From: Bacteroidales bacterium
GTDB lineage: Bacteria; Bacteroidota; Bacteroidia; Bacteroidales; VadinHA17
DNA: 64,000 nt
Reading direction: 5' to 3'
Assembly: GCA_034002785.1 (NCBI GenBank)
Contig: JAVEZX010000002.1
Span: forward strand, 1,526-65,525
In this document: in pieces, positions 9,846 to 39,556 of the stretch
Position numbering within the stretch: position 1 is the first letter of the stretch
Layout: each line of letters begins with the position of its first letter
Translations under genes and position numbers: made by a program
The notes under the pieces: model-generated
What the model was told of the DNA's origin: nothing
Databases searched by the model: none
Seen by the model: only the letters and a program-made list of their open reading frames with translations

Positions 9846-12701
9846 TTAAAACTGCAATTTCATCTCCTCTCCCGCATAGGTGACCGTCCTGTCAGGTGTT
9901 CTTCCGAAATCGAGTTTAACGGGTTTGCCCTTTGAAACCATCACCACATTGATCACACGCTCCGGCAGCATACCCTGGAATCCGCCGCTCCTTGTCCCTA
10001 TTGTAAGGGTAAGTTCATTCTCGCTCCATTTAAGGGGGATGAGTGAATATGCTCCCTCTTCATAGTTGTAGTTGTCTCCCTCGTCCTCATAGAGCGTAAA
10101 GCTGCCGTCTGACCCGGCATAGACCCAGAGGGTAAGTGGATCAGCCTGTTTTTCAGTACTGTATTGAATTTCCGGGCCAAAGGGGATAACTGATCCTTCC
10201 CTGACAAATACCGGCATATAATCATATGGAGCCTCTGCTTCAGTAACAGCGCCTCCGGCGAAGTATATACCGGAACGCATATCATACCATCCGTAGGCAG
10301 CAGGGAGATATACACTGCGCGACCGGGCTTTGTACTCGGTTACCGGGTTTATCATCAGTGACGGCCCGAACATATACTGGTCAGGGATATCGAAGACGGC
10401 CGTATCACCGCTGAAGTCCATCGTGAGGCCACGCATTATTGTGTAGTCATTCAGCCATGCATTACCAGCAAGGGAATATATGTAAGGCATAAGCCTGTAT
10501 CTCAGTTGATTGTATTCAACCATCGTTTTATAGGCAGGATGTCCGGCCGGGGCGGTATTATACATCTCACGGAAGGGGAATTCGCCGTGCGATCTGAACA
10601 GCGGCACGAAGGCGCCATACTGGTGCCAGCGGGTCATCAGCTCGCGCCATTCCTCGAGGTCAGCCGGTGACGGGTTGTGGTATCGGCTCTCAACCGAGAA
10701 TCCTCCGATGTCCATTGTCCACCAGGGTATCCCTGACATCGAGAAGTTCAGACCGCAGGGTATCTGCGCCGCCATATCGTGCCATCTTGCTGCTATATCT
10801 CCACTCCAGTTGGCGGCGGAGTAGCGCTGCAGCCCTCCGAAAGCTGAGCGTGTCAGGATGAAGACCCTGTTCTCCGGATCTGTTGCACGCTGCCCCTCAA
10901 AGACCCCCTGTGCCTGTACCAGGGCATAGGCATTGAAATACCTGTCAGCCGATCCGAGGGCAGTCGGATGCATCATCGCCTTGCGCTCATCCATCGGCAG
11001 GTTGGAGGTTATATCAGGCTCTGTGGCATCCAGCCACCAGGCGTCGATCCCCTTGCTGTAAAGTGCGGTGTTGATCTGTTCCCAGAAGGCTGCGCGGGCA
11101 TCAGCGTTGAATGCATCGTAGAAGGTTGAGAGGTAACCGATCCAGTCTTTACGCTCCTTCTCTACATTACGCATGTAGAGATAACCCTTGCTTTTCATTG
11201 CCTCATAGTTTTCTGTGCCGACATAATACTTGGGCCAGACAGAGATCATTATGTTTGCATTAAGCTCATTATGCAATGTGCTGATCATTGCGTCAGGATC
11301 AGGGAAACGGTCAGGGTCAAACTGGTGGTCACCCCATTTGTCTATGGGCCAGTACTGCCAGTCGAGCACAATGTTGTCAAAGGGTATCTGCCGCTTCCGG
11401 TACTCCCTGACCACATCAAGAAGTTCCTGCTGGTTTGTGTATCGCTGACGGCTCTGCCAGAATCCCATGGCCCATTTCGGCATCACCGGGGCCTTCCCGG
11501 TTACTGTACGATAACCGCTGATAACCTCATCCATGCTCTCGCCGCTGATGAAGTAATAGTCAATCTGGTCAGCCACTTCGGACCAGAATGAGATGCGCTG
11601 CTGTTCTTCCTCATCCAGAGGGGTAAGATACCTGAGTGCTATATATGACTCGCCTCCGTCAGGGATCCATTCGATCTTCACAGGGTAGCGTCTGCCTGGC
11701 TCAAGGTTAAGGTTGAAATAGTTTGTGGAGGCGTTCCAGCACTGTCTCCAGCGGTCGAAGATCAGCCTGCCGTCAATCCACAGCTTTGCATACCCTGCCG
11801 AATTGAACATGAACTTATGCTCCCCTGAGGTATCTGATTCAAACTCCCCCTCCCAGGTGACCATGCCGTCACCCAGGCTGAAGCCCTGCGGAAATTTCAC
11901 CAGGTCAGGAATGAACTGGTAACTGATCTCCTTCTCCTGGCGGGTGGTAAAAATATTCCTGCCGCTCTTCCTGTCGGCATACACAGCCGTCAGGCCACCT
12001 TCCGCCCCGCCCCTGTCATAGAGCTTCAGTGCCGACAGTTCGCTCCACTCCCGGATATCGCCATATTTTGTATGTGAGTTGTTATCCCAGAGGATTCCGA
12101 AGTTCCGGTTTGAGATGATGAAAGGTACCACCGCCATGGTGTTATATTGGAAAAGATCGGCGTCCTTTCCCTTCAGGTTCATGAAGGAGGTCTGGTTTGC
12201 TCCCAGACCATAGATGGCCTCGTCAGGATGCGACTCAAACTGTTGCCTGACTGGGTGGCCGTTCTCGTTGATTGCCATGACAGGTGAGAAGCCTCTTCCT
12301 CCTCCTTCCTGTTCAGCAAGAAAGAGGTTTCCGTCTCGGTCAGTGAACCGGACTTCACCGGTTTTCAGGAATACTTCTGCGCTGAGCGAAGAGGTGCTCA
12401 GGGTGATGAGACCCTCTCCCTTTTCGATTGTAAAATCGGATTTGCCGGAAGGCATAGGAAGAGCCATCAGACTCACCGATTCCGGAAATTCACCGGAGGG
12501 TACAGCCGTGACCCTGATGATCCGGTCATTGACAACCTGAAGTCTCACGGCCTGACCCGGATAATCAGATTTGCCGTTGAGACGGACTGTCATTCCATTG
12601 TCAGTCCGCTCGTAGGGTTCGCCTGAACAGGAGACCATCGCAATGGCGATTATGAGGGCAGCTGAAGCGCCGATTGCCGGTAGTATTCGTGCAAGTTTCA
12701 T
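9846..12701 (-). CDS. GH31 glycoside hydrolase with inserted PA14 domain (alpha-xylosidase-like; alpha-glucosidase/galactosidase not excluded), lipoprotein
   Basis: Lipobox (MVSC). GH31 nucleophile motif KGIDAWWLDATEPD. Acid/base region NWSGDIAARW. The PA14-like insert reads GLTAVYADR...GEHKFMFNSAGYAKLWIDGRLIFDRW. Confidence 0.8.
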   Translation of the reverse strand: MKLARILPAIGASAALIIAIAMVSCSGEPYERTDNGMTVRLNGKSDYPGQAVRLQVVNDRIIRVTAVPSGEFPESVSLMALPMPSGKSDFTIEKGEGLITLSTSSLSAEVFLKTGEVRFTDRDGNLFLAEQEGGGRGFSPVMAINENGHPVRQQFESHPDEAIYGLGANQTSFMNLKGKDADLFQYNTMAVVPFIISNRNFGILWDNNSHTKYGDIREWSELSALKLYDRGGAEGGLTAVYADRKSGRNIFTTRQEKEISYQFIPDLVKFPQGFSLGDGMVTWEGEFESDTSGEHKFMFNSAGYAKLWIDGRLIFDRWRQCWNASTNYFNLNLEPGRRYPVKIEWIPDGGESYIALRYLTPLDEEEQQRISFWSEVADQIDYYFISGESMDEVISGYRTVTGKAPVMPKWAMGFWQSRQRYTNQQELLDVVREYRKRQIPFDNIVLDWQYWPIDKWGDHQFDPDRFPDPDAMISTLHNELNANIMISVWPKYYVGTENYEAMKSKGYLYMRNVEKERKDWIGYLSTFYDAFNADARAAFWEQINTALYSKGIDAWWLDATEPDITSNLPMDERKAMMHPTALGSADRYFNAYALVQAQGVFEGQRATDPENRVFILTRSAFGGLQRYSAANWSGDIAARWHDMAAQIPCGLNFSMSGIPWWTMDIGGFSVESRYHNPSPADLEEWRELMTRWHQYGAFVPLFRSHGEFPFREMYNTAPAGHPAYKTMVEYNQLRYRLMPYIYSLAGNAWLNDYTIMRGLTMDFSGDTAVFDIPDQYMFGPSLMINPVTEYKARSRSVYLPAAYGWYDMRSGIYFAGGAVTEAEAPYDYMPVFVREGSVIPFGPEIQYSTEKQADPLTLWVYAGSDGSFTLYEDEGDNYNYEEGAYSLIPLKWSENELTLTIGTRSGGFQGMLPERVINVVMVSKGKPVKLDFGRTPDRTVTYAGEEMKLQF

Positions 12702-12704
12702 CTG

Positions 12705-15700
12705 TCAGTGTTTTTTGATTATTAATTTTTTTGTCACCATGTAACTTTCGCCGGAAAAGTTAATGAAATAAATCCCCGGTTCAAAACCTGTAATGAGAGG
12801 GATGTCTGATCCGTCACTCACCAGTTCATTTCTAAGGAGGATGGCTCCCCGGATATCACTTACGGCGATACGTACAACACCGGATGGGATGTTCTCAACG
12901 GTAATGTTTCCGTCCGAGGGATTGGGCCGGATAGATATGCCGTCATCTGTCGCAATCAGTTCCGAGGAGGTTATCTCATTGTTAATTGCCAGTTGCTTCG
13001 TCCCCGGTTCGACCAGGATGTACAGTGCCGAGAGGGGCGGAAGTATTACCTTCATCTCTTCACCAATGACAACCGCACTGGCTTTGAGGGTCTCATAATC
13101 AGCCGGTCCGCCTGCCTCCAGGCTGTTGCCGGCGCCATTGACGAAAACCTTCCGGGAGAAATCACTGCCTTCACTTCCTGTCAGCGTGTATGTATAGAAC
13201 CGTTCTCCCACACCGTAATCCTTCAGGTTGATTCTCACCACCTTGCGGACCTTTGTGGTGTTCACAAGCGAGGCACCGATATGCCCGGAGCTGAAGGCTG
13301 TGGAAGTGATTACCACTCCCGGGGCACCGGTGACGGTTGATTTAAGCAGTACATCTCCGGTGTGGCGGCGCATATAGTAGAGATGGTAGAATGCCGGGTG
13401 CGGTTCGTACTTTGGTATGCCTGGTTCGTTATAGGCATACATACCGTGATCATTACCGTTATCCCAGCCATTTGCGAGGTCCCAGCGGCAGGCGGCGCCG
13501 TAGCCTGACCTGATCATCTCGCCCGTTGCCAGCACAGCCTGCATGCCGTTGGCGTGAGAGACTGCCTGGCTGGAGCCTGTGGCGAAGATATTGTACTCAG
13601 TCAGTGCCACCGGCAGCATCGGCATTCCGGCAGCCTCAACGGTTGACCGGACATAGTTCCTGTACCCTTCAGTATAGCTGTAGGAGCCCAGCACCGTTGC
13701 CACATCCGAGTTAGTGTTATAGGGTGTATAGTAGCTGTGAACCACGTAGAAGTCGGCAATATCACCGACCTGAGCCGCCACCCCTGTATTCCACGAATTG
13801 TGGGTAGAGGCTGCCTCCACCATTACCACTCCTATCTTTATTTCCTTGCCGGTCTCAGCAGCGGCAGCCTTCATCGAGTCAATGAAGACACGGCAGTGCT
13901 GACCGTAGAGCTGAGGCGTGATATATTCCGGCTGGCCGTCCTTATTCAGGGACCGGTCAATGCGGTATCCTGCCTCCCAGCTGCCGAAGACCTCGTTGCC
14001 TATCTCCCAGAATTTCGTCCTGCCGTTGTCATAGCGCACCCAATCTGCTGCCAGGTGTGCTGCCTGAGCCACAGGGTTGTCACTCGTGCCATATCTGGCA
14101 TAACCATAGTTTACTGTTATCATGCCTGTGAGGCTGGTCTTGCTGAGTATGCTGTAGAAGGAATCTACATGCATCGTCCAGTCCTCCGGTCTCTGCCCGT
14201 ACCAGGGCCACCAGGTGTTTGAGGGATCGTTGAGCAGTGTTTGCGGCACATCCTGAGGGCGCTGATTGGTCGCCTTGTTCCAGAAAAAGGCGTCGGATGT
14301 GCTGCCCCCGGGACCGCGCATCAGACCCTGATCACGATTGGAAATATGCTTCATCAGGGCGGCATTGTCAGACATCGGTCCTGTCCAGAGATTGGCATTG
14401 TCACCAAACAGGTAGGGTGACACTTTTGTGATTGTGTCGGAAAAGTCAATTGTAGCGGCAACTGTTACCGGATCTGTCACTGCAGGCACATCGGTATAGT
14501 CAGGCACAATGGCTGTGCGGGGCTTCCATCCGGCCATGAAGAATCCCTGGGGATATGCGCTGTAGTCAGGCTCGTCGCTAAGGGGATAGCTCTTCAGATC
14601 AGGCATCTCATCGAGGGTAACCACATAGTCATGGGCCATCACCTTCTGCCAGTGACTGAGCGGGTTCTTGATACCGTCACGGATAAAGGAGCCGTACCAG
14701 GGCATGAACCACGACCAGTATGCTCTGTCATCCACAAGCCTGTCAGGGTCAGGAACAGGTCCGTTCTCACTGAGGGTGATCAGCTTTCTGCCACCGAACT
14801 TTTCCTTGATCGAATTATAGGTAAGCACCTGTGAGCTGAAGTCGCCGTCCGCTGCGTAGATGTCAGCGCCCAGAATATCAACATAATCATCTCCGGGATA
14901 CCAGTCGAGGTTATTGGCCGCGGCATCGGTGGTCCAGACCCAGATCAGGTTCTTAAGACCGTGATAGTTGACAAGGCGGTCAAACATGAGCCGCCAGAGC
15001 GCCTTGCAGGGTTCGGGACCTTTTGCTCCCCACCAGAACCAGCCTCCGGAAGCTTCATGAAGAGGCCTGAAAAGGACAGGGATGTTTTCATTGTTCAGCT
15101 GTTTCAGATAACCGGCAATGATGTCAATATCACTCAGCATGGCCTGGTATTCAACCGAGGTGGTCTCGTAGATCTTCGTGACGTCAAACTGAGTATCTGC
15201 CGTGTAAAATGCCTCCGTGGCACGTGACGGATCGCGCCAGTGCCAGCAGATGGCTACCAGGCCGTTCCTGTTGTACCAGTTTCTTGCCTCGGTGACCAGG
15301 ACTGACTTGTCAAACCAGCTGTAATTGCGGTTATGGTTCATGAAGTCGAGACCGATGAGTGCCGGGTATTTGCCGGTCTGGGAGAAAAGCCATTCAGCCT
15401 CCTCCTTTGCATTGAGGCTCATGGCACCCGAGTGTGTTTTCCTGGTGAAACTATCCATGAGATAGCTCCAGAGCCGCCTAGTCTCACTGTGAGGTGAAGG
15501 GGATGCCAGGGGATATGGCAGTTGCACGGTCACTTCAGGATCGGTATCGGGCTCTATACGGAAATAATCGAACAGGAACCATCCCCAGCTCTTGGTCATT
15601 GAGAGGGTATTGATGCCCTCCTTCAACCATATCTTTCCGAAAGAGACCTCAGTAAAGGATGCGCTGGCGGGGAATGAGGCCTCGGAGCTGTTGCCGTTGA

Positions 15701-15983
15701 TCCCGACGATGTTCTTCTTGTCCCCGTACGGGGCGGCATACCCCAGGTAGAGTTTATACCAGCCTCCCTGAGCGAGTGTTATGGCAACGGATACTGCATC
15801 TCCGTCATTCTGAAATATTCCTGCGTAACCTGTTCCGGAATAGCCGGCGACGGTATTCAGAACTGAAATTCCCCCTGTTAAGGTGCCGTTCTCGGCCTCA
15901 TATGCAGTGCTTTGTGCATAAACTGCAACAGTGAGTGACAGAAGCAACGCCGGGTATAGCAACAATCTGAAAGTTAATCTCAT
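12705..15983 (-). CDS. Secreted multidomain enzyme: CBM6/35-like module + GH26 mannanase + second unassigned clan GH-A-like (beta/alpha)8 domain + T9SS C-terminal sorting domain
   Basis: Signal peptide (aa 1-23). CBM-like aa ~25-145 (AYEAENGTL...GYSGTGYAG...DYFRIEP). GH26 aa ~160-455 (CWHWRDP, FRPLHEASGGWFWWG, ITLSENG). Domain X aa ~505-995 (MRGPGGSTSDAFFWN, KFWEIGNEVFGSWE with Glu664 at 13992-13994, VALTEYNIF with Glu796). Por_Secre_tail-like end aa ~1012-1092 (IRPNPSDGNITVE...GIYFINF...KKLIIKKH). Confidence 0.8.
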   Translation of the reverse strand: MRLTFRLLLYPALLLSLTVAVYAQSTAYEAENGTLTGGISVLNTVAGYSGTGYAGIFQNDGDAVSVAITLAQGGWYKLYLGYAAPYGDKKNIVGINGNSSEASFPASASFTEVSFGKIWLKEGINTLSMTKSWGWFLFDYFRIEPDTDPEVTVQLPYPLASPSPHSETRRLWSYLMDSFTRKTHSGAMSLNAKEEAEWLFSQTGKYPALIGLDFMNHNRNYSWFDKSVLVTEARNWYNRNGLVAICWHWRDPSRATEAFYTADTQFDVTKIYETTSVEYQAMLSDIDIIAGYLKQLNNENIPVLFRPLHEASGGWFWWGAKGPEPCKALWRLMFDRLVNYHGLKNLIWVWTTDAAANNLDWYPGDDYVDILGADIYAADGDFSSQVLTYNSIKEKFGGRKLITLSENGPVPDPDRLVDDRAYWSWFMPWYGSFIRDGIKNPLSHWQKVMAHDYVVTLDEMPDLKSYPLSDEPDYSAYPQGFFMAGWKPRTAIVPDYTDVPAVTDPVTVAATIDFSDTITKVSPYLFGDNANLWTGPMSDNAALMKHISNRDQGLMRGPGGSTSDAFFWNKATNQRPQDVPQTLLNDPSNTWWPWYGQRPEDWTMHVDSFYSILSKTSLTGMITVNYGYARYGTSDNPVAQAAHLAADWVRYDNGRTKFWEIGNEVFGSWEAGYRIDRSLNKDGQPEYITPQLYGQHCRVFIDSMKAAAAETGKEIKIGVVMVEAASTHNSWNTGVAAQVGDIADFYVVHSYYTPYNTNSDVATVLGSYSYTEGYRNYVRSTVEAAGMPMLPVALTEYNIFATGSSQAVSHANGMQAVLATGEMIRSGYGAACRWDLANGWDNGNDHGMYAYNEPGIPKYEPHPAFYHLYYMRRHTGDVLLKSTVTGAPGVVITSTAFSSGHIGASLVNTTKVRKVVRINLKDYGVGERFYTYTLTGSEGSDFSRKVFVNGAGNSLEAGGPADYETLKASAVVIGEEMKVILPPLSALYILVEPGTKQLAINNEITSSELIATDDGISIRPNPSDGNITVENIPSGVVRIAVSDIRGAILLRNELVSDGSDIPLITGFEPGIYFINFSGESYMVTKKLIIKKH

Positions 15984-16092: not shown

Positions 16093-18225
16093 TCATTTAT
16101 GCTCAAATCTGATGTTGTCAATGTAAAGACCTGTGAGGTCCATGTTCACTCCGGTCCAGAGGGTCATACCCCAGTCGCCGCTGGAAGGAATTACTGCCGG
16201 CAGTGCCGAATAGGTGGCCAGGTCGATGGTGATCGTGATCCATCCCGGTGTTGACCAGCTGCCGTCATCATTCTGAAGACCAAGATGTCCGATATCGAAA
16301 TCCGTTCCTGCCAGCTTCATAGTAAACGACCCTGTGCCGGGAGCAAACGGTTTGGTAATATTAACGTCCATCTTCAGGTAGTGGTCTGCCTTTGTCACGG
16401 AAGGCTTTGGAAGTTGGCTATGGTTGCAACCCCAGATCCAGGTCCAACCGTTAAGTGCAGGAAGGACGCCATGCATATAATTGCCTGATATTGCTATTGA
16501 AGGATCGCTGCCAAGTTCCACTGCACCACTCCAATTATCCCAGTTGAGATCATGACCGTCAAGTCCAACCTCGAAGTCGTTGATCATCAGTGCAGGATCC
16601 ACTATCGGGTCTGTAGCGCCGAAGAAGATCTGCGGGAAGATACCCTGTTCACCTTCATATGTCAGGAGTCCGATTGTACCGTATCCACGCGTAACGTTCA
16701 CCGGTACATAAACTTCAATCCTGGTATCGGTCTTGACGCCATAGGCTGTGGCAGGTACATTTCCGGGGAAGATTAGTTCCTTGACAAGCAGCAGGTTGGT
16801 GCCGTTGATTGTAAGAATCTTGCCGGGCTCACCGCGGAACTCGGTGTAAGAACCAAAGGTCGGAAGGTTTGCCAGAAGTGTAAAGTCAATGGCAGATACC
16901 ACCTGTGTGCCGTTTTTGGTTGTAAGGGTTATCTTGCCTGATTTGGCCCCCACAGGCACAGTCACTGCAAGCGAGGTCTCCGTTCTTGTCCCTATGGTGC
17001 CGTCGATGCCTCCCGTGAAGGTTACTTTGGTTACAAGATCAAGATCAGTACCTGAAATTGTGACAGTGGTTCCTGCCCTGGAGGAAGTGGGGCTGAATGA
17101 GGAGAAGGCAGGGACTATCATTGTCAGATTTGGACCTGTAATCTCTTTGTCTGCTCTTGTGAAGAAGCTCACAACACCGTCAACGGCGTCATCCGGAACA
17201 GTTACCAGTATCTCGGTGGCGGTTCCGCCGGCCTTGATCGTACCCTGCTTGTTCCCGCCGAAGACAACACGTGAAATCAGGTCAAGGTTAGTTCCCGTGA
17301 CGGTTATATCCTCTCCGTTCTTCAGTGTCACCGGGGTAACTGCAACCGTGGGGATAACCATAACCAGATCATTTGCAGAGGTCACCTCGACTCCTGAAGC
17401 CGGCACCATGATAACCTTGCCGTCCTTTGTGTCCTCAGGCACGGAGATTACAATCTGGGTGGCATTGTGGGAGCCGAAATCTTCGGCATCGATTTCCTTT
17501 CCTCCTCCAAGTTTGACACTGAGCACCAGGTCAAGGTTGGTTCCGGCAATCGTCAGGTTTGTACCGGCCTTGACAGGATTCGGTGTCACTGAGGTGAAAG
17601 CAGGCAACGTCACGTTGAGTGTTGCGGCTGAGTATACTATAATCGGCTCCTCCTCTCCGTTGGAAACTGCTATCTTGCCTGTCTGTGCCGTTGCAGGCAC
17701 CTCCAGCTTGATTTCGGTACGTGTGTGACTCGTGAAATCATCCTCAGAGACCACAATACGGTCGGAGAGTATTACCTCACCGACAAGATTGAGATAGTCA
17801 CCTGTTATTGTCAGCACATCTCCTGCCTTTACTGTTGCAGGGGTGAAACTTGCAATCGAAATGGGCTCCGAGAAGCCGATTGTGGTCTTGGTGGTTATGT
17901 CGCCGTCAGGTGTCTTAAGGGTCACATAGCCCGGCATTGCCTCCTGTGGAACAGTGAGGGTCAGCAGGGTGGGCTCCTTCTTTGTGAAGGCGGTGATTGT
18001 GATGTCATTTGGCAACACCACGGAGGTTACCTTGTCAAGATTCAGCCCGATGAATTTCAGTTCGGCTCCCCTGGCAATAGGCATTGGCCCGAAGCTCTGG
18101 AGAACCACCTTGGTATCTTCCTCTTCCTTGCCCTCGCATGAGGTGACAAGGAGACCGGCGCTGACAACGCAGAGTGTCGCGATGAGCAGAGCCCAGTTGT
18201 GGAATTTTATCTGAATTTTATGCAT
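16093..18225 (-). CDS. Surface glycan-binding-type lipoprotein with ~6 tandem IPT/TIG domains and a C-terminal beta-sandwich (CBM-like) domain
   Basis: I chose the start at MHKIQIKFHNWALLIATLCVVSAGLLVTSC (lipobox; ATG at 18225..18223, 23 nt after the upstream stop) rather than the track's 18297. There are repeated ~80-aa units with the signature P..VKAG..LTI.GTNLDLV..V. The position immediately downstream of susD is typical of SGBPs. Confidence 0.8.
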   Translation of the reverse strand: MHKIQIKFHNWALLIATLCVVSAGLLVTSCEGKEEEDTKVVLQSFGPMPIARGAELKFIGLNLDKVTSVVLPNDITITAFTKKEPTLLTLTVPQEAMPGYVTLKTPDGDITTKTTIGFSEPISIASFTPATVKAGDVLTITGDYLNLVGEVILSDRIVVSEDDFTSHTRTEIKLEVPATAQTGKIAVSNGEEEPIIVYSAATLNVTLPAFTSVTPNPVKAGTNLTIAGTNLDLVLSVKLGGGKEIDAEDFGSHNATQIVISVPEDTKDGKVIMVPASGVEVTSANDLVMVIPTVAVTPVTLKNGEDITVTGTNLDLISRVVFGGNKQGTIKAGGTATEILVTVPDDAVDGVVSFFTRADKEITGPNLTMIVPAFSSFSPTSSRAGTTVTISGTDLDLVTKVTFTGGIDGTIGTRTETSLAVTVPVGAKSGKITLTTKNGTQVVSAIDFTLLANLPTFGSYTEFRGEPGKILTINGTNLLLVKELIFPGNVPATAYGVKTDTRIEVYVPVNVTRGYGTIGLLTYEGEQGIFPQIFFGATDPIVDPALMINDFEVGLDGHDLNWDNWSGAVELGSDPSIAISGNYMHGVLPALNGWTWIWGCNHSQLPKPSVTKADHYLKMDVNITKPFAPGTGSFTMKLAGTDFDIGHLGLQNDDGSWSTPGWITITIDLATYSALPAVIPSSGDWGMTLWTGVNMDLTGLYIDNIRFEHK

Positions 18226-18248
18226 TGCAATTCTTTTTTCAGTTGATA

Positions 18249-19478
18249 TTACTTCGGTACAACGCGTATGTTGTCTATGCATATGTGCGGGGTGCATTCC
18301 TTACCATCCACACCACCATGCCATACAAGGAAAGTAAGGCCGCGAATCATGTCAGCAGTGAGCTTGTCGGAGTGAACCGAGCCGTCAGGGCCGTAGTTGA
18401 ATTCTGACAGTGGGTATGAGACGGTTGTCCACCCGTTGGTCTTGTAGGTTCCGGTCTCCTTCCACGGGATCCAGAGACCTCTTGGCAAGGGGACATCAGC
18501 AATGTAGCTGTTTGCTCCCGTGATGGAGTATGGGGTGAAGATCATCTGCAGTGCACCTGACTCCCATGCTTCAACCACGTTAACTTCAAACTTGATCTCG
18601 CCGTCTTTCAGTTCACCGGTATATACCGGTACATCGGGCCTGCCGTTTGCCTGTGGCCAGTAATTGAAGCTGACGCCGTCCTCATTCCATACACTGCCTG
18701 CTTTAGCGGGCAGTGTGCCGGAAAAACGGACATAATTACCGGAAATGCCAGCAGGGTTGGAATTTCCTATCACTCCCGAACGCCATCCTCCTGCAGCGGT
18801 CAGATCATCAAAGTTGAGGATGATGTTCCTGTCATCGCGGAAGAAGAAGCGTGAACGGGTGGTACCGTAAAGCGACTTGACCTGTATCTGACCCGGACCT
18901 ACACCCGGAGGAACTGTCACATGAATCTCGTTTATTGTGAAGTTCACGATCGTTCCGGGTATGTTCCCCGGAAACAGTACAGTCAGCGGTGATGCAGGGT
19001 CATCAACGAAGTAGTTACCCCTGATTACAGCCGTACCACCGTCTTCAACATACTCGCACACCATCCTGTCAACCAGCGGAGCAGGAACGTCTACCCCGAA
19101 AGTATATTTCAGAGTATCCTTCTTGTTCATGTTGATAAGGTACAGGTAGTTGGTAACAGTGGCCGGGATAACCTCCGGCACGGAGACCAGGATGGATGTC
19201 GCAGTCACCAGGTTGGGATTCAGCGCAGCCCTCTGATCATTGAACCAGACCTCATCGACAAAACCCAGGTTTTTCCCTATGATGGCGATGTTGTCTCCCA
19301 TAAAGGCATGAGCCACCAGTGAGTCAGATTTGACAGGATCTGTCTTGCGGATGTAGAAGATCTCAGGCATCAGCATCTCTTCCTCATTGCCTTCGCATGC
19401 CTGGAATAACATTCCTGCAGCTCCCGTAACAAGCAGAAGCAGGAATGCCGATAATGTATTGTTGATTATCTTTTTCAT
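18249..19478 (-). CDS. Surface glycan-binding-type lipoprotein (2 IPT/TIG domains + C-terminal CBM-like domain)
   Basis: Lipobox (MLFQAC). IPT-like segments are present (IAIIGKNLGFVDEVWF; AVIRGNYF...VTVPPGVGPGQIQV). The C-terminal domain shares ISGNY and IDNIR motifs with the downstream paralogue. Confidence 0.75.
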   Translation of the reverse strand: MKKIINNTLSAFLLLLVTGAAGMLFQACEGNEEEMLMPEIFYIRKTDPVKSDSLVAHAFMGDNIAIIGKNLGFVDEVWFNDQRAALNPNLVTATSILVSVPEVIPATVTNYLYLINMNKKDTLKYTFGVDVPAPLVDRMVCEYVEDGGTAVIRGNYFVDDPASPLTVLFPGNIPGTIVNFTINEIHVTVPPGVGPGQIQVKSLYGTTRSRFFFRDDRNIILNFDDLTAAGGWRSGVIGNSNPAGISGNYVRFSGTLPAKAGSVWNEDGVSFNYWPQANGRPDVPVYTGELKDGEIKFEVNVVEAWESGALQMIFTPYSITGANSYIADVPLPRGLWIPWKETGTYKTNGWTTVSYPLSEFNYGPDGSVHSDKLTADMIRGLTFLVWHGGVDGKECTPHICIDNIRVVPK

Positions 19479-24567: not shown

Positions 24568-25314
24568 ATGATATCTCACAAGATCGTTCCCAACATCTCA
24601 GTCGACTGCGTGATCTTTGGTTTCGACTTTGAAAAGCTGAATGTCCTGCTTGTCGAAAGAGAGATGAAAGACAAAAAAAACGGCGAGATACTGATTAAGG
24701 ACCACACCCTGGCCGGATACCATATCTTCGAGGATGAAGACCTTGACAGTGCAGCTGCCAGGATCCTGAAAGGACTTACCGGACTCGACAATATTTTCCT
24801 TGAACAGTTCGGCGCCTTCGGCCAGCTAGACCGCGTCTCATCACCAAAGGACAAGATGTGGCTCGATTATATCAACAAGGGATTTGCTGACCGCGTTGTC
24901 ACAGTGGGATACCTCGCTCTGATAGACAATACAAAGGTTACCCTCACGCTGAAGGACAGGAATGTGGCATGGTTTCCCGTATCGGCAGTGCAGGAGATGG
25001 AGATGGCATTTGACCACAGATACCTCTTCCACACCGCCCTGGAGGCTCTCCAGCGCAAGGTGAAGGTGGAACCAATCGTATTTGAACTGCTGCCTGATTA
25101 CTTTACGATCTCACAGCTGCAGAAAGTTTACGAGGCAGTGCTTGGAACATCGTTCGACAAGCGTAACTTCAGGAAAAAAGTGGCACAGATGCACTACGTC
25201 ATCCCGTTGCGGAAGAAACAGCAGGGCGTGCCGCACAAACCTGCACAGTTCTATCTCTTCAGCCGGGAGGTGTACGAAAAAACCAGAAAAGGACGCATCT
25301 CTTTCATTATCTGA
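24568..25314 (+). CDS. NrtR/AraR-like transcriptional regulator (degenerate Nudix sensor domain + C-terminal winged helix)
   Basis: The N-terminus ISVDCVIFGFDFEKLNVLLVER is typical of the family. The Nudix-box region reads SAAARILKGLTGL, where a catalytic box would read AAxRELxEETGL, so the catalytic Glu residues are replaced. The C-terminal part reads FTISQLQKVYEAVLGTSFDKRNFRKK. Confidence 0.8.
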   Translation: MISHKIVPNISVDCVIFGFDFEKLNVLLVEREMKDKKNGEILIKDHTLAGYHIFEDEDLDSAAARILKGLTGLDNIFLEQFGAFGQLDRVSSPKDKMWLDYINKGFADRVVTVGYLALIDNTKVTLTLKDRNVAWFPVSAVQEMEMAFDHRYLFHTALEALQRKVKVEPIVFELLPDYFTISQLQKVYEAVLGTSFDKRNFRKKVAQMHYVIPLRKKQQGVPHKPAQFYLFSREVYEKTRKGRISFII

Positions 25315-25342
25315 TATATAACCCATTTAACCAACCATAACC

Positions 25343-27217
25343 ATGAATGTACACTTCATTGACCTGGGCATAGTCATCCTGTACCTTGTGGCCACCATCT
25401 TCATAGGCAACTGGGTGTCAAAGAGAGCTTCGCGAAACATCCAGTCTTACTTCCTCGGGGGCAACACTCTTCCCTGGTACTTCCTTGGCATCTCTAACGC
25501 CTCCGGGATGTTTGATATCGCCGGAACCATGCTGCTCGTCTACTGGCTATCCGTTTACGGCATGAAGAGCCTCTGGATACCCTGGCTCTGGCCTGTCTTC
25601 AACCAGATATTCCTGATGGTCTACCTCTCCGCCTGGCTCAGACGATCCAACGTAATGACAGGCGCAGAGTGGATCAAGACCCGGTTCGGCGACGGGAGGG
25701 CCTCGAACCTGTCCCATGTCATAGTGGTTGTCTTCGCCCTGGTAAGCGTGATAGGCTTCCTCTCCTATGGCTTCAAGGGTATCGGCAAATTCGTGGCGGC
25801 CTTCCTTCCTCCTCTCGTGTCAAATCCCGACTACCTGCTGGCACACCCGCAGATAAATGTCAACCTCTATGCATTGATCCTGATGGCCATAACCACCTTC
25901 TACGTCGTGAAGGGCGGTATGTTCAGCGTGGTGATCACTGAAGTCATCCAGTACGGAATACTCACAATAGCATCAATTGCCGTAGGTATCATCGCCATAA
26001 AACAGGTCTCCCCCGATGCACTCAACTCGGTCATACCTGAAGGATGGAAGAGCCTCTGGTTCGGGAGGACCACGGGTCTCGACTGGCACGCCATCTCCTC
26101 TGTGGGTTCGCCGAAGCTGCACTCGTTCAACGACTGGATAAAAACTGACGGTTATGAGCTCTTCGGCCTCTTCTTCGTTATGATGCTCTTCAAGGGTATC
26201 CTTGTCTCTGCGGCAGGCCCGGCGCCCAACTACGACATGCAGCGCGTCCTTGCCACCAAAAACCCGAAGGAGGCCTCGAAGATGAGCTCGCTGGTGAGCG
26301 TGGTACTCAACCCGACACGTTACTTTATGGTTGCCGGTCTCACAATCCTCGCCCTGGTGAACTTTGACAAGCTATATACCGGCTCACTGACCAATCCCGA
26401 CTTCGAGAGCATCCTGCCCGAAGTGCTGGCGACTTATGTTCCCGTGGGGCTCCTCGGATTCCTTCTCGCCGGTCTTATCGCAGCCTTCATGAGCAACTTC
26501 GCAGCTACGGTGAACGCCGCCCCCGCCTACCTGGTCAATGACATCTACAAGAGATACATCAATCCCAACGCCAGCGAAAAGACATATGTGCGGATGAGCT
26601 ATGCCGCCTCACTCCTTATTGTGGTTGTTGGAATAGTTGTCGGATTCCTGGTGACTTCAATAAATGACGTGGTGCTCTGGATCACTGCAGCCCTCTGGGG
26701 TGGCTACACCGCCCCCAACTTCCTGAAGTGGTACTGGTGGCGATTCAACGGTTACGGTTACTTCTGGGGCATGCTCTCAGGCATCATAGCCGCACTCATC
26801 CTGCCGGCACTGAATATAGGCCTGCTGCAGAACTGGCCGCTGACAGAGAACTTCAGTATGAACGCATTCCCCGTCATCTTCCTCTTCTCACTCATCGGCA
26901 GTATCCTCGGTTCACTCCTTACAAAGAGGGAGGATGACGCTACCCTGAAAAAATTCTACAGGCAGGTCCGCCCCTGGGGATTCTGGAAACCGGTTGAGAG
27001 AATGGTTCTCGCCGAAGATCCTTCATTTAAAGCCAACCGCGACTTCTGGAGGGATATGTTCAACATTGCTGTGGGAATCGTTTGGCAGATATCACTTATG
27101 GCATTCCCTGTGTTCCTGGTGATGAGGGAATGGACCCAGTTCTATGTTGCCGTGGCCGTGATGATCGTTACCACAATCATCCTGAAATTCAGCTGGTGGG
27201 ATAAACTTAAAGACTGA
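25343..27217 (+). CDS. Sodium:solute symporter (SSS) family sugar transporter
   Basis: 624 aa and highly hydrophobic, with about 13-14 predicted TM segments. The N-terminus is typical of the SSS family (LGIVILYLVATIFIGNWVSKRASRNIQSYFLGGNTLPWY). Confidence 0.85.
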   Translation: MNVHFIDLGIVILYLVATIFIGNWVSKRASRNIQSYFLGGNTLPWYFLGISNASGMFDIAGTMLLVYWLSVYGMKSLWIPWLWPVFNQIFLMVYLSAWLRRSNVMTGAEWIKTRFGDGRASNLSHVIVVVFALVSVIGFLSYGFKGIGKFVAAFLPPLVSNPDYLLAHPQINVNLYALILMAITTFYVVKGGMFSVVITEVIQYGILTIASIAVGIIAIKQVSPDALNSVIPEGWKSLWFGRTTGLDWHAISSVGSPKLHSFNDWIKTDGYELFGLFFVMMLFKGILVSAAGPAPNYDMQRVLATKNPKEASKMSSLVSVVLNPTRYFMVAGLTILALVNFDKLYTGSLTNPDFESILPEVLATYVPVGLLGFLLAGLIAAFMSNFAATVNAAPAYLVNDIYKRYINPNASEKTYVRMSYAASLLIVVVGIVVGFLVTSINDVVLWITAALWGGYTAPNFLKWYWWRFNGYGYFWGMLSGIIAALILPALNIGLLQNWPLTENFSMNAFPVIFLFSLIGSILGSLLTKREDDATLKKFYRQVRPWGFWKPVERMVLAEDPSFKANRDFWRDMFNIAVGIVWQISLMAFPVFLVMREWTQFYVAVAVMIVTTIILKFSWWDKLKD

Positions 27218-27225
27218 CTTGAAAC

Positions 27226-29658
27226 ATGAAATTCGGATATTTTGATGACGCTGCAAGAGAGTATGTCATCACACAGTACAAAACGCCATGGCCCTGGATC
27301 AATTACCTGGGCAACAAGGACTTCTTCTCGATAATCTCGAACACCGCAGGAGGCTACAGCTTCTACCGCGATGCCCGGCTCCGTAGGATAACCCGGTACA
27401 GGTACAACAACGTGCCGATGGACGACGGCGGCAAGTACTTTTATATCAATGATAACGGTTCTGTCTGGTCCCCGGGATGGAAACCGGTGAAGACAGATGT
27501 CGAAGACTACTCCTGCCGTCACGGCATGGGCTACACGATGATCGGCTCAGCCAGGGACAGTCTGAGGGCGGACATACTCTACTTCGTTCCGCTGGATGAC
27601 ACCTGCGAGGTGCAGCGCGTCATACTGCGCAATACAGGTACAATGCCGAAGCATATCAAGCTCTTCTCGTTTACCGAGTGGTGCTTCTGGAATGCGCATG
27701 ATGACCAGACCAACTTCCAGCGTAACTTCTCAACCGGTGAGGTGGAGGTGGAGGAGGGTGTCATCTATCACAAGACAGAGTACCGTGAGCGCCGTAACCA
27801 CTATGCATTCCATTCGGTCAACAGCCCTGTGGCTGGCTTCGACACCGACCGTGAGACGTTCCTGGGAATCTATAACGGCTTTGACCGTCCCGAGACTGTC
27901 TTCTCCGGCCGGCCACGAAACAGCATAGCCCACGGATGGTCACCAGTGGCATCGCACTGCCTGGAGACCATCCTGGAGCCGGGCGAGGTGAAGGAATACA
28001 TCTTCGTCCTTGGATATATCGAGAATCCTGACAACGAAAAATTCATCGCTCCGAAGGTGATAAACAAAGTCAGGGCAAAGGCAATGATCGGCAGGTATGA
28101 CACCTCTGAGAAGGTCGATATCGCCTTCGCGAAGCTGAAGGAATACTGGGACAGCCAGCTTTCGGTTATCAGCCTGAACCACCCGGACCCACGCCTCGAG
28201 CGTATGGTCAACACCTGGAACCCCTACCAGTGCATGGCTACATACAACTTCTCACGGAGTACCTCCTATTTCGAATCCGGCATTGGCCGCGGGATGGGGT
28301 TCCGCGACTCTAACCAGGACCTTGTGGGATATGTTCAGATGATCGGCCAGCAATCGCGCGACAGGATCATTGACATTGCCTCAACGCAGTTGAACGACGG
28401 CAGCGCATACCACCAGTACCAGCCTCTGACAAAGAGGGGCAACGCCGAGATAGGCGGCAATTTCAACGATGACCCGCTGTGGCTCATCTTCGGTGTGGCT
28501 GCATACCTCAAGGAGACGGGCGACTGGTCAATACTTGACGAGACGGTGCCGTTCAACAACAACCCGGATGATGCGGCAAGCCTCTTCGAGCACCTGCACC
28601 GTTCCTTCATGCACGTGGTGAACCACCTCGGACCTCACGGCCTGCCGCTGATAGGGCGCGCTGACTGGAACGACTGTCTTAACCTGAACTGCTTCTCATC
28701 AAACCCCGATGAGAGCTTCCAGACAACTGAGAACCAGAAGGGAGGCCAGGCGGAATCACTGTTCATTGCCGCCATGTTCGTGCTCTACGGTGCTGATTTT
28801 GTTACAATTGCCCGTCGCAGGGGCGAGACACAGATGGCAGATGAGGCCACAGATCATATTGATGCTATGGTCCGGGCTGTCAATGAGCACGGCTGGGACG
28901 GCGACTGGTTCCTGCGGGCATACGATTTTTACGGACGCAAGGTTGGCAGTCGTGAAAACGAGGAGGGTAAGATCTTCATTGAATCACAGGGTATGTGTAT
29001 CATGGCTGGTATAGGGCTCGACGACGGCAGGGCGCTGAAGGCGCTGACATCAGTCAATAAGCACCTGGCATGCGAGCACGGCATTGTTCTCAACAACCCC
29101 GCCTTCACGAAGTACTACCTCCACCTGGGTGAAATATCAAGCTACCCTGAAGGATATAAGGAAAACGCCGGCATCTTCTGCCATAACAACCCGTGGATAA
29201 TCATAGCCGAGACACTTGCCGGCAACGGACACAGGGCCTTTGACTACTACAGCAGGATAACACCCTCGTACCTCGAGGATATTAGTGATCTTCACAAGAC
29301 GGAGCCATATGTCTACTCACAGATGATTGCAGGCAAGGATGCCTTTCGTCCCGGTGAGGCAAAGAACAGCTGGCTGACCGGTACGGCCTCATGGTGCTAT
29401 TATGCGATCACACAGTATATCCTGGGCATCAGACCCGATTATGACGGGCTGCTGGTTGATCCGTGCATACCGCCCGACTGGGGAGGATTTACTGTCAGGC
29501 GTAAATTCAGGGGAGCGGTTTACAACATCGAGATCATCAACCCGGAGCACAAGTCCAAGGGTGTCTGGGAGATCACGGTTGACGGAAAGAAAGTCGATTC
29601 GTGCCTACTCCCGGTCTTCGCCGCGGGGACTGAACATGAAGTCAAAATAATAATGTAA
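27226..29658 (+). CDS. GH94 disaccharide phosphorylase (cellobiose-phosphorylase-like)
   Basis: 810 aa with no signal peptide. The hallmark N-terminus is [29 protein letters not shown]. The catalytic-region motif is [12 protein letters not shown]. Also present are [12 protein letters not shown] and SWLTGTASW. The size fits cellobiose/chitobiose phosphorylases rather than cellodextrin phosphorylases. Confidence 0.85.
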
Positions 29659-29662
29659 TATC

Positions 29663-31402
29663 ATGAAAATAAAGAGACTGTTTTTGATCACTGGCGCAGT
29701 AATGATGCTTGCATGCGCAGGTTGCGGCAGCAAGACGCTGATAACGGCCAGGCTTGCAGCCCCCGCTGATACTGATATCATCCTGGTGAACCAGACCGGA
29801 TATCTTCCCGGAGCCGAAAAGGTGGCCCTTCTGAGGACAGACACTGACATTTTCGAGTTGATCGATGCTGTCACCGGGAAAAATGTATTCGGCGCTGAAC
29901 CCGGCGCACCGGTTTTCTGGGAGATGTCGGGCGACACAGTCCGTGCAGCTGATTTTTCAGCTTTTACAACACCCGGCACCTACAGGGTCTGCCTGACAGG
30001 AACCGATATCTGCTCCGCACCCTTCCGCATCGGGGAGGACGTCTACGGCGAGATCACTGCAGCGGCAGTACGCTCTTATTATCTAAACCGCTCCGGCATT
30101 GAGATAACGGAAGTCCATGGCGGTAAATGGGCGCGCCCGGCAGGCCACCCTGATACGGCAGTGATAGTGCATTCCTCAGCCGCCTCAGCCAGACGGCCGG
30201 CAGGTACTGTGATCTCCAGCCCTGGCGGATGGTATGATGCAGGCGACTACAACAAGTACATAGTCAACAGCAGCATCACCAATTATACCCTGCTTCTGTT
30301 CTACCAGATGTTCCCGGAGTATTGCCGGTCGCTTGACCTTAACATCCCTGAAAGCGGTAATGATATTCCTGACCTGGTTGATGAGCTGCTCTGGAACCTG
30401 AGATGGTACCTGACAATGCAGGACCCGGCTGACGGTGGGGTGTACCACAAGCTGACGAACCTGTACTTCTGCGGGTTTGTGATGCCTCTTGAGGCCACCG
30501 ATCCGAGATATGTGGTGATGAAGAGCACCGCCGCCACCCTTGACTTTGCTGCCTTCACTGCCATGGCACACCGCATATTTGCCAGTGACCCGTCAGAGGA
30601 GCTCAGGGCACTGGCCGCCACCTGTCTTGAGGCATCCGGCAAAGCGATGAAATGGGCTGAGGCTCATCCCGATGTGATTTACAAACAGCCTGCGGATGTG
30701 AGCACCGGCGCCTACGGCGATGACAACCTCTCCGACGAGCTCTTCTGGGCTATGGCAGAGAGGGCGCTGGCCACGGGAACTGTTCCGGGGCCGGGCTTCC
30801 TCGACGGTGTGGCAGCAGTAACCCCGACGTGGAACCAGTCGGCAACGCTGGGTCTCATCTCCCTTGCACTCAGCAGTGATGAAGCATTTGCTACAATTCG
30901 CGATGAAGCTGCCGGGATGCTTGTTTCGTATGCTGACGCCCTGCTTGAGAAATCCGGGATGTGCCCCTACCGCATCAGCCTCGACAGGTTTGACTGGGGC
31001 AGCACCTCAGATGTTGCCAACCAGGCCATGATCAAGATCGTTGCAATGAAACTATCGGGCAGCGACAGGTTCCTGCCATCCGTTCAGGCCGACCTGAACT
31101 GGCTGCTTGGAACGAATCCTACAGGGTACTGCTTCGTCACAGGGTTCGGGACCCTTACACCGATGTTTATCCATCACCGTCCATCAGGCGCTGACGGCGT
31201 ACCTGAGCCGGTGCCGGGGTTCCTTGTTGGCGGTCCGAACACAGTTGTAATGAATGACTGTCAACCGCCGGTTGAAAGGTCAACATTTCCTGCGAAGTCA
31301 TACTCTGATGTAGAGTGCAGCTACTCCACAAATGAGATCGCAATAAACTGGAACGCCCCGCTGGTGTTCCTGCTTGGCGCGATGGACAGCATGCGGCAAT
31401 AA
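29663..31402 (+). CDS. GH9 endo-beta-1,4-glucanase with N-terminal Ig-like (CelD_N-type) domain, lipoprotein
   Basis: Lipobox (LACAGC). GH9 motifs are present: GGWYDAGDYNKY, GGVYHKL, IHHRPSGADG, LVGGPN and YSTNEIAINWNAPLVF. Confidence 0.9.
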   Translation: MKIKRLFLITGAVMMLACAGCGSKTLITARLAAPADTDIILVNQTGYLPGAEKVALLRTDTDIFELIDAVTGKNVFGAEPGAPVFWEMSGDTVRAADFSAFTTPGTYRVCLTGTDICSAPFRIGEDVYGEITAAAVRSYYLNRSGIEITEVHGGKWARPAGHPDTAVIVHSSAASARRPAGTVISSPGGWYDAGDYNKYIVNSSITNYTLLLFYQMFPEYCRSLDLNIPESGNDIPDLVDELLWNLRWYLTMQDPADGGVYHKLTNLYFCGFVMPLEATDPRYVVMKSTAATLDFAAFTAMAHRIFASDPSEELRALAATCLEASGKAMKWAEAHPDVIYKQPADVSTGAYGDDNLSDELFWAMAERALATGTVPGPGFLDGVAAVTPTWNQSATLGLISLALSSDEAFATIRDEAAGMLVSYADALLEKSGMCPYRISLDRFDWGSTSDVANQAMIKIVAMKLSGSDRFLPSVQADLNWLLGTNPTGYCFVTGFGTLTPMFIHHRPSGADGVPEPVPGFLVGGPNTVVMNDCQPPVERSTFPAKSYSDVECSYSTNEIAINWNAPLVFLLGAMDSMRQ

Positions 31403-31496
31403 CCTCTGCCGGAGGAGGACATGCTGCCCAACATTTTCTGATTCCCTTCAGAACCGGATCCAAATGCATAACTTAGTGGATCAAAGGAATCATAAG

Positions 31497-39404: not shown

Positions 39405-39556
39405 AACTACGACGGAATTGGTTAGACGGAGAATTTCGCTCAAATTCCATGCCAACCTGCAGGCTATAACAGTGAAATTACCCGCTCCTGTTTCTGCAAC
39501 CGGCTCTGCAGTTTAGTCGTCTCCTTTTTTTTATACTGCAATACAGGGGTTACAAT

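Follow-up and report, generated by a model that had tools for sequence, protein, structure and literature searches.

We examined a stretch of 64,000 nucleotides from a Bacteroidales bacterium of the VadinHA17 lineage (assembly GCA_034002785.1, contig JAVEZX010000002.1, positions 1,526 to 65,525; hereafter the window), in which a SusC/SusD pair is co-oriented with genes for two surface glycan-binding proteins (SGBPs) and then with a series of enzyme genes, separated by gaps of 3-109 nt, i.e., the arrangement of a polysaccharide utilization locus (PUL). The genes are read in the order SusC, SusD, SGBP, SGBP (with a TIG domain), the fusion gene that is the subject of this work, a GH31 glycoside hydrolase, an AXE1-type esterase and a GH2 enzyme. 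The fusion gene encodes a protein of 1092 aa in which a carbohydrate-binding module (CBM35) and a GH26 mannanase domain are joined to a second domain, called domain X here, and to a C-terminal sorting domain (CTD) for secretion by the type IX system (T9SS). As read from its sequence, the gene encodes a bifunctional secreted hemicellulase, a known kind of protein, and X represents a large, uncharacterised GH51-related family that is missed by curated hidden Markov models (HMMs). The original prediction of a secreted, bimodular enzyme is thus supported by a putative signal peptide, the CTD, the GH26 domain and a second domain of clan GH-A type.

The fusion open reading frame (ORF) starts with ATG and occupies 12705..15983 of the minus strand; re-reading of the sequence returned the coordinates of the original prediction and all of the motif positions quoted in it. 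The protein begins with a Sec signal peptide of the signal peptidase I (SPI) type (aa 1-23, …TVAVYA/QS, nt 15915..15983), called by eye and with an inferred cleavage site. The CBM35 (aa 26-145, nt 15549..15908) matched Pfam PF16990 (E 3.8e-26, 92.2 bits vs the cutoff of 28) and aligned with the CBM35 of Podospora PaMan26A (3zm8). The GH26 endo-beta-1,4-mannanase domain (aa 162-459, nt 14607..15500) matched PF02156 (E 8.7e-74, 249 bits, cutoff 20.2), and the best PDB match of this half of the protein was again the endo-mannanase PaMan26A 3zm8 (E 1e-90). Its HE (aa 309-310) and SENG (aa 405-408) motifs hold the acid/base E310 (nt 15054-15056) and the nucleophile E406 (nt 14766-14768), both of which aligned with the catalytic Glu residues of PaMan26A, in full agreement with the claim of a canonical GH26 domain. 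The linker (aa 460-477, nt 14553..14606, …MPDLKSYPLSDEPDYSAY) fills the gap from the last residue of the GH26 model, aa 459, to the PQGFF sequence of X. Domain X (aa ~478-1000, nt ~12984..14552) is, by AlphaFold2 (AF2), Foldseek and hhalign, a GH51-like barrel plus beta-sandwich. Because X opens at about aa 478 with a conserved PQGFF..W.P motif, which is the mature N-terminus in stand-alone homologues, the linker is ~18 aa and X ~520 aa, and the ~45-aa linker and ~490-aa region (nt ~12999-14471) first proposed were corrected. The motifs of X are MRGPGGSTSDAFFWN (aa 555-569), KFWEIGNEVFGSWE (aa 657-670, with the E664 codon at nt 13992-13994) and VALTEYNIF (aa 792-800, with the E796 codon at nt 13596-13598).

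The T9SS type A sorting domain (aa ~1019-1090, nt 12714..12929) scored above both curated cutoffs, with 29.1 bits vs 27 for PF18962 (Por_Secre_tail, aa 1020-1089) and 35.8 vs 23 for TIGR04183; together with the SPI-like N-terminus, seen by eye, this marks the protein as T9SS type A cargo. Pfam scans found no other Por_Secre_tail among the window ORFs of >=180 aa, which supports, for ORFs of that size, the statement that the locus encodes no T9SS cargo other than the fusion; genes for the T9SS machinery (PorK/L/M/N, SprA, PorU/V) were not found within the 64-kb window. An exact-sequence look-up of the protein returned no match among public assemblies. The ORF is not a chance product, because it has thousands of homologues with E-values down to 0.

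The region aa 460-1019 had no Pfam or NCBIfam match above cutoff, so that for these standard HMM libraries X is unassigned, as first stated. When the X region was scanned alone against Pfam at E<=10, the sole result was a sub-threshold match to aspartate decarboxylase. The JGI label "aspartate 1-decarboxylase" carried by some homologues was rejected as spurious; the match reaches 17.7-19.4 bits vs a cutoff of 25 and falls inside the beta-sandwich. The AF2 model of X (pLDDT 83, pTM 0.88, from a 29-sequence alignment) showed eight beta-alpha repeats and, after them, an all-beta domain in which N-terminal strands take part. The barrel plus beta-sandwich of the original prediction was therefore seen by both AF2 and Foldseek, but the sandwich is not purely C-terminal since N-terminal strands of X join in it. 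Foldseek of the model against the PDB placed GH51 arabinofuranosidases first (E 1e-26, template-modelling score (TM) 0.64-0.69), followed by GH79 beta-glucuronidases/heparanase and GH44 glucanases/xyloglucanases, all of the matches being at 10-18% identity. GH51 was the only family detectable when the single sequence of X was searched against the PDB (E 6e-4), and it was also found by the family-profile search with hmmsearch (E 7e-7); the PDB alignments paired GNE with GNE, H-x-Y with H-x-Y, and TEYN of X with DEWN of GH51.

Profile-profile comparison was by hhalign, of an alignment of X from 78 species (sequences down to 46% identity) and a thin GH51 profile of 4 sequences, i.e., the bona fide GH51 genes of two loci described below (L040, L080) and two GH51 fragments. 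The match of X to this profile covered 416 columns in global mode (probability 99.5%) and 362 in local mode (98.5%), at ~21% identity and with E-values of 2e-15 to 3e-22, and X matched single GH51 sequences at 95-97%; the controls GH5, GH10, two GH26 and GH2 gave <=5%. Since the GH51 match is strong while the clan GH-A controls stay at <=5%, X is not a generic TIM-barrel look-alike; judged by these alignments, it is a specific, deep-branching relative of GH51. The original prediction had stated that the domain cannot be placed in a specific family from the sequence alone, and had proposed remote-homology and AlphaFold-Foldseek searches; these were run, GH51 was the top match by profile and by fold, and the statement is amended to a specific remote GH51 homologue (98.5-99.5% vs <=5% for controls). 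It had also named assignment to a well-characterised family of mannan-unrelated specificity as an outcome that would count against it. This holds by half: the GH51 homology is confident, whereas GH51 membership and arabinofuranosidase specificity are not, because there is no GH51 Pfam match, identity is 21% and three sugar-contact positions differ. The GH51 models PF22848 and PF06964 matched neither the window X nor ten other family members at E<=10, although both do mark true GH51 fragments.

The names given to X in RefSeq/UniRef for Chitinophaga and Pedobacter include "alpha-L-arabinofuranosidase" and "hypothetical protein", and metagenome members are either nameless or labelled by their T9SS domain alone. 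The automatic "arabinofuranosidase" label is probably misleading. The literature searched held no paper describing the X family or a GH26-GH51-type architecture, and no mention of GH26-GH51, GH10-GH51 or GH51-CBM6 architectures.

In the AF2 model, E664, preceded by N663, ends beta4 and E796 ends beta7 (strands 166-172 and 302-308 in domain numbering), as in the retaining enzymes of clan GH-A, and both residues aligned with the acid/base and nucleophile of GH51 in the PDB searches and in hhalign. R556, N663, E664, H749, Y751, E796, W834 and N838 were 100% conserved in the 78 species-level X sequences. The two Glu residues that had been put forward as catalytic candidates are thus GH51-aligned, at the ends of beta4 and beta7, and invariant; a structural model without the pair, which would have spoken for a non-catalytic module, was not obtained. 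X is very probably an active retaining GH51-like glycosidase. The idea that X is a catalytically dead binding or scaffold module derived from a glycosidase has a precedent in a Segatella copri PUL (PMC12704710), one GH26 of which is inactive, both of its catalytic residues being lost, but we regard it as very improbable: both Glu and the Asn, His, Tyr and Arg constellation are fully conserved down to 46% identity, and X is the only recognisable domain besides the sorting signal in most family members.

For the Geobacillus arabinofuranosidase AbfA we take E29, R69, N74, N174, E175, H244, Y246, E294 and Q351 to be the arabinofuranose-binding residues. In hhalign with the thin 4-sequence GH51 profile, six of these nine positions were kept in X (R556, N663, E664, H749, Y751, E796) and three were replaced (E29 by N531, N74 by S561, and Q351 by ~D841/W840); nor does the true GH51 of L080 have Asn at the N74 position, where its residue is Cys. 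Because these three sugar-contact positions are replaced, the -1 subsite of X may differ from that of an arabinofuranosidase, a soft reading in view of the thin profile. This bears upon the alternative that X is an exo-acting GH51-type debrancher, e.g., an alpha-L-arabinofuranosidase that acts on arabinoxyloglucan or arabinoxylan together with the GH31-esterase-GH2 set. GH51 is the closest family by profile and by fold and the database names point the same way, but three of the presumed arabinose contacts are replaced in the alignment and neither GH51 Pfam model matches any of 11 X sequences. We consider this alternative unlikely, and return to it below with the evidence from gene neighbourhoods.

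In ~20 of 80 X loci collected from other genomes, matches to CBM35 and GH26 lie immediately beside X and in the orientation of X. Unbroken ORFs of 1092-1101 aa with the same architecture are found in four of these (L004, L005, L010, L020), the cluster representative P0121 (1088 aa) has the same layout as the window protein, and the fusion is conserved within a Rikenellaceae-like clade. Elsewhere the two parts are neighbours: in L024 the CBM35-GH26 and X units are separate, adjacent genes, and in two Prolixibacteraceae loci (L046, L049) a GH26 gene followed by a lipoprotein X gene stands behind the same SusC-SusD-SGBP-SGBP block. From these comparisons, the window protein arose by fusion of two PUL genes that lay side by side, an event specific to its lineage, and has been kept in several species; the "chimera", as it was called at first, is not a one-off. 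It could be argued that the 1092-aa protein is an artefact of assembly or frameshift that merges a CBM35-GH26 gene with a gene for signal peptide, X and CTD, given the separate genes of L024 and a different split in L002. This is hardly credible, since full-length ORFs occur in independent assemblies and P0121 has the same layout, so that the fusion is neither artefact nor singleton; the window X also follows GH26 in frame after a short linker and has no separate signal peptide. Two irregular loci were noted. In L002 (7615-13744), a near-identical metagenome locus, the fusion is split into 340 + 742 aa and the GH31 into 570 + 382 aa, and these splits are probably assembly frameshift errors rather than biology. 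In L003 (14814-18914) the AXE1-type esterase and GH2 were called as a single protein of 1366 aa, which may be a second fusion in the same locus type, or may represent a gene-calling or sequencing artefact.

The X family is large. A word-indexed search with X returned >3,588 clusters at 90% identity, and an exhaustive search of 50%-identity representatives gave 825 with E<=1e-3, 179 of them with E<=1e-30. X is encoded in at least 560 species-representative genomes, and with these numbers the suggestion of a poorly sampled family did not hold. Carriers include Rikenellaceae-like Bacteroidales, Prolixibacteraceae, Chitinophagaceae (with the cultured Chitinophaga chungangae and C. polysaccharea), Pedobacter, and a few KSB1 and Calditrichota; among the matches listed, the genome closest to the window was a Bacteroidetes metagenome-assembled genome (MAG) (L004, 92%). 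The commonest X protein has ~640 aa and consists of signal peptide, X and T9SS domain. Export of X appears in two forms, by an SPI signal and T9SS domain in Bacteroidales, and by a lipobox in Pedobacter and Chitinophagaceae, where X is without a T9SS domain and has the lipobox (…SC-KK…) and a Pro-rich linker at its N-terminus. Longer X proteins carry CBM6/CBM35, GH10 xylanase, ricin-type lectin, Ig-like repeat or pectate-lyase-like modules, and 16 of 17 multidomain X proteins scanned had the T9SS tail; together these show X to be a widely reused module of secreted plant-cell-wall enzymes. Examples seen were P0134 (1450 aa, GH10-X-CTD), P0171 (1387 aa, pectate-lyase-like-X-CTD) and P0254, a multimodular T9SS protein of 3416 aa with X at residues 1995-2448. 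X variants of ~800 aa lie outside PULs. Bona fide GH51 genes, with the motifs FxEH, RWPGG, GNE and DEW, were observed beside X in L040 (7913-9877) and L080 (10729-12588); in L040, a KSB1 MAG, the GH51 gene is directly upstream of X, with a ~180-aa insert between its beta1 and beta2.

The remaining genes of the window PUL, named from Pfam matches unless stated, lie on both sides of the fusion gene. Upstream on the minus strand are SusC (21110-24268), SusD (19484-21091) and two SGBP lipoproteins with an SGBP-B xyloglucan-binding-type domain (18249-19478, and 16093-18297 with an additional TIG domain, 734 aa). If the first ATG is taken as its start, the 734-aa ORF shares 49 nt with the SGBP gene upstream; its true start is probably a later Met (MHKIQIKF…) ahead of a lipoprotein signal peptide. 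Downstream on the same strand, 3 nt from the fusion gene, is a lipoprotein GH31 alpha-xylosidase with a PA14 domain (9846..12701), which matched the Bacteroides ovatus xyloglucan alpha-xylosidase BoGH31A (PDB 5jou) over its full length with 1058 bits and, by this alignment, is its orthologue. A role of this GH31 as an alpha-galactosidase, in a PUL for galactoglucomannan or for beta-galactoglucomannan of alternating Glc-Man, was dropped as a lead on the ground of this full-length orthology. The AXE1-type esterase (8080-9816) and GH2 (5635-8064) follow on the minus strand; GH31 adjoins X in many loci, and the esterase-GH2 synteny beside GH31/X is conserved in related loci. Beyond a divergent AraC regulator (4652-5533, plus strand) are, on the minus strand, a GH5-mannosidase-like lipoprotein of 433 aa (3051-4352), a GH26 lipoprotein (GH26b, 1913-3043) and a cytoplasmic GH130 without signal peptide (712-1899). 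The 433-aa ORF itself had no match in the Pfam copy searched, and its 86%-identical orthologue in L002 carries PF26410 (GH5_mannosidase); it is probably a beta-mannosidase-type GH5. On the other side of SusC a divergent operon (24568..31402, plus strand) encodes a NUDIX/NrtR-type regulator, an SSF symporter, GH94 and a GH9 lipoprotein, and the region 24568-32732 also holds an enolase-superfamily (MR/MLE) protein. The GH94 is of cellobiose-phosphorylase type, and with this operon, cellobiose-type products may be split by phosphorolysis rather than by a GH3 beta-glucosidase. GH5_4, GH3, GH43 and GH95 were not detected in the window. Farther away, ORFs of 304 and 301 aa without Pfam match lie within 45027-47572 (plus strand) and 38550-39455 (minus strand), and a 547-aa ORF in the same stretch matched BACON_2 alone; the group is flanked by a two-component system and a PBP1-type gene.

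Cellular locations were called from the N-termini by eye, without a predictor. Both SGBPs have an acidic C-E-G-x-E-E-E sequence after the lipobox, which we take to be the surface-export signature of Bacteroidota. GH26b, the GH5-like enzyme, GH2, GH31 and GH9 are lipoproteins without the acidic motif after Cys, and the esterase has an SPI signal; all six are probably periplasmic. GH130 and GH94 had no signal peptide. Because the other PUL enzymes look periplasmic or cytoplasmic, the fusion would stand alone among them in having a clear way out of the cell, and X would be the only extracellular candidate for the xyloglucan side of this PUL.

Gene contexts were counted for 37 stand-alone X loci with >=8 kb on each side, drawn from the 80 loci. 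Most X copies are stand-alone T9SS cargo or lipoproteins directly behind SusC/SusD/SGBP genes, the usual place of the outer endo-enzyme of a PUL, and SusC was present in 24 of the 37. An orthologue of the BoGH31A-type alpha-xylosidase was found in 14 and mannan genes also in 14, with both in 3 and neither in 12. The xyloglucan-type PULs hold the BoGH31A orthologue, GH2, GH74, GH95 and GH9; the Pedobacter locus L060 (GH31-SusC-SusD-SGBP_XBD-X-GH2-GH74-like-GH9-GH95) is a textbook xyloglucan PUL. The glucomannan-type PULs hold GH26, GH130, epimerase and CE2, in the order GH26-SSF-GH130-epimerase-X-CE2. In L045 (AraC-SusC-SusD-TIG-SSF-GH130-X-CE2) X is the sole backbone-cleaving candidate among the annotated PUL genes, and L070 has GH5-like, GH26, SSF, GH130, epimerase, X, GH31, GH2, GH3 and CE2 together. 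X also stands behind a GH10 gene in three Prolixibacteraceae loci.

These contexts can be set against two readings of X. If X were a second mannan-directed enzyme, i.e., an endo-beta-mannanase with other subsites, or an exo-beta-mannosidase or mannobiohydrolase that aids GH26, then its fusion or adjacency to GH26 in several lineages and its recurrence in operons with GH130, epimerase and CE2 would follow readily. Clan GH-A includes mannanase families, namely GH5, GH26 and GH113. Beta-mannanase families are also named in the abstract of PMC9032380. A mannan role is, however, quite improbable, in that mannan genes are absent from the range covered in 11 of the 14 stand-alone loci with the BoGH31A-type alpha-xylosidase, the PUL of L060 is purely of xyloglucan type, and the fold neighbours GH51, GH79 and GH44 have no link to mannan. 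The debranching GH51-type enzyme introduced above finds further support in X-GH31-esterase-GH2 being readable as a side-chain-removal cluster, in L060, which already has a GH74-like enzyme and GH9 and shows no obvious arabinofuranosidase, and in the adjacency or fusion of X to GH10 and the X-CBM6 proteins, which resemble known combinations of xylanase and arabinofuranosidase. It is difficult to reconcile with the GH26-GH130-epimerase-X-CE2 glucomannan operons, glucomannan being without arabinose; nor does it readily explain the fusion to an endo-mannanase, and the coexistence of true GH51 genes with X in L040 and L080 argues against redundancy of X with GH51.

The reading that we prefer, and to which we give about an even chance, is that X acts as a retaining endo-beta-1,4-glucanase or xyloglucanase and is the partner of the mannanase. 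Since xyloglucan and glucomannan share beta-1,4-glucosyl linkages and X takes the position of the outer enzyme, this is the simplest reading; GH51 holds verified endoglucanases (e.g., of Fibrobacter succinogenes) besides arabinofuranosidases, and GH44, near to X in fold, has xyloglucanases and a glucanase-xylanase among its members. Endo-action and a specificity for glucan, xyloglucan or glucomannan, like the cellular locations, are what we infer from the observed architecture, fold, GH51 homology, residue conservation and contexts. The protein would leave the cytoplasm by Sec export, and its CTD would then hand it to the type IX system for delivery to the cell surface or medium, where the CBM35 may dock it on the substrate. 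The GH26 domain would cleave beta-1,4-mannan backbones and X, with E664 as acid/base and E796 as nucleophile, the beta-1,4-glucosidic backbone of xyloglucan and/or glucomannan, the fusion serving as the sole extracellular enzyme of a mixed mannan/xyloglucan-type PUL. SusC/SusD would take up the released oligosaccharides. In the periplasm their side chains may be removed by the GH31 alpha-xylosidase, GH2 and esterase, and GH9, GH26 and the GH5-like enzyme may shorten them; GH130 and GH94 would complete the breakdown in the cytoplasm. An exo-beta-glucosidase role of X in place of GH3 was set aside, as X is exported from the cell and GH31 processing of xyloglucan oligosaccharides is periplasmic.

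Several observations weigh against X being such an endo-glucanase. GH51, its nearest family, consists mostly of exo-alpha-L-arabinofuranosidases, the name that RefSeq gives to some X proteins. By hhalign, the beta2-alpha2 loop region of GH51 can be aligned with X, and for this reason the active site could be pocket-like. GH74, GH5 or GH9 candidates for backbone cleavage are already present in some X loci, and X stands beside GH10 xylanases or is fused to CBM6 as in arabinoxylan-debranching enzymes. About a third of the stand-alone loci (12/37) have no informative neighbours, and the surface-vs-periplasm assignment of lipoproteins was by eye. We propose tentatively, at somewhat less than an even chance, that X founds a new GH family, or else a GH51 subfamily with a new function, made up of endo-beta-1,4-glucanases/xyloglucanases of the cell surface.

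Prediction of the glycan targeted by a PUL in Bacteroidota depends on recognising the outer polymer-cleaving enzyme. If the proposed role is true, X would be an unrecognised outer enzyme of xyloglucan/glucomannan PULs in hundreds of environmental Bacteroidota species, and GH26-X one secreted enzyme that cuts primary-wall hemicelluloses at mannosyl and glucosyl linkages alike. Defining the activity of X, which at least 560 species of soil, sediment and gut encode, would correct the annotation of many loci, and clan GH-A might gain a new specificity or family by it; the fused mannanase-X could be of use in the processing of softwood or primary-wall hemicellulose. X is thus a good target for enzyme discovery and represents incremental enzymology, not a new biological principle.

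Among known systems, GH51 enzymes (the Thermotoga and Geobacillus arabinofuranosidases and the F. succinogenes endoglucanases) are like X in that a (beta/alpha)8 barrel is combined with a C-terminal beta-sandwich to which an N-terminal strand contributes, and they share the R-x-P-G-G, G-N-E acid/base, H-x-Y and (D/T)-E-(W/Y)-N nucleophile motifs. X differs in its ~21% identity, in having no PF22848/PF06964 match and in three substituted sugar-contact positions. Classic GH51 arabinofuranosidases are mostly intracellular oligomers, whereas X, as T9SS cargo or lipoprotein, is predicted to be extracellular and is embedded in PULs. GH44 (Cel44A, Paenibacillus XG44, CelM2) and GH79 are also of barrel-plus-sandwich form and were among the top 50 Foldseek matches (TM ~0.55-0.75); according to PDB entry titles, GH44 acts on xyloglucan and several other beta-1,4-glycans and includes a glucanase-xylanase. 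Unlike with GH51, X had no PDB sequence match or Pfam match to GH44 or GH79, and their Foldseek E-values were weaker.

The B. ovatus xyloglucan locus encodes the vanguard endo-xyloglucanase BoGH5A together with BoGH31A, BoGH2A, BoGH9A and SGBP-B. The window PUL resembles it in the BoGH31A orthologue, GH2, GH9 and SGBP-B-type domains, with X at the position of the outer enzyme; it differs in that GH5_4 was not detected and X stands in its place, in that GH3, GH43 and GH95 were not found, and in that mannan genes (GH26, GH130, GH5-mannosidase-like) are merged into it.

A close functional precedent for the fusion, as we read it, is the S. copri GH26-GH5_4 protein, a surface glucomannanase whose mannanase and glucanase open glucomannan for its PUL, and beside which CelH of Acetivibrio thermocellum is cited (PMC12704710). 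The second domain of the S. copri enzyme is GH5_4, and a lipid anchor, not T9SS secretion, is assumed for the protein; activities have been measured for this enzyme and are predicted for X. The two PULs are alike in having SusC/D, further GH26 genes, GH130 and an esterase, and in both a single PUL protein combines GH26 with a second clan GH-A domain.

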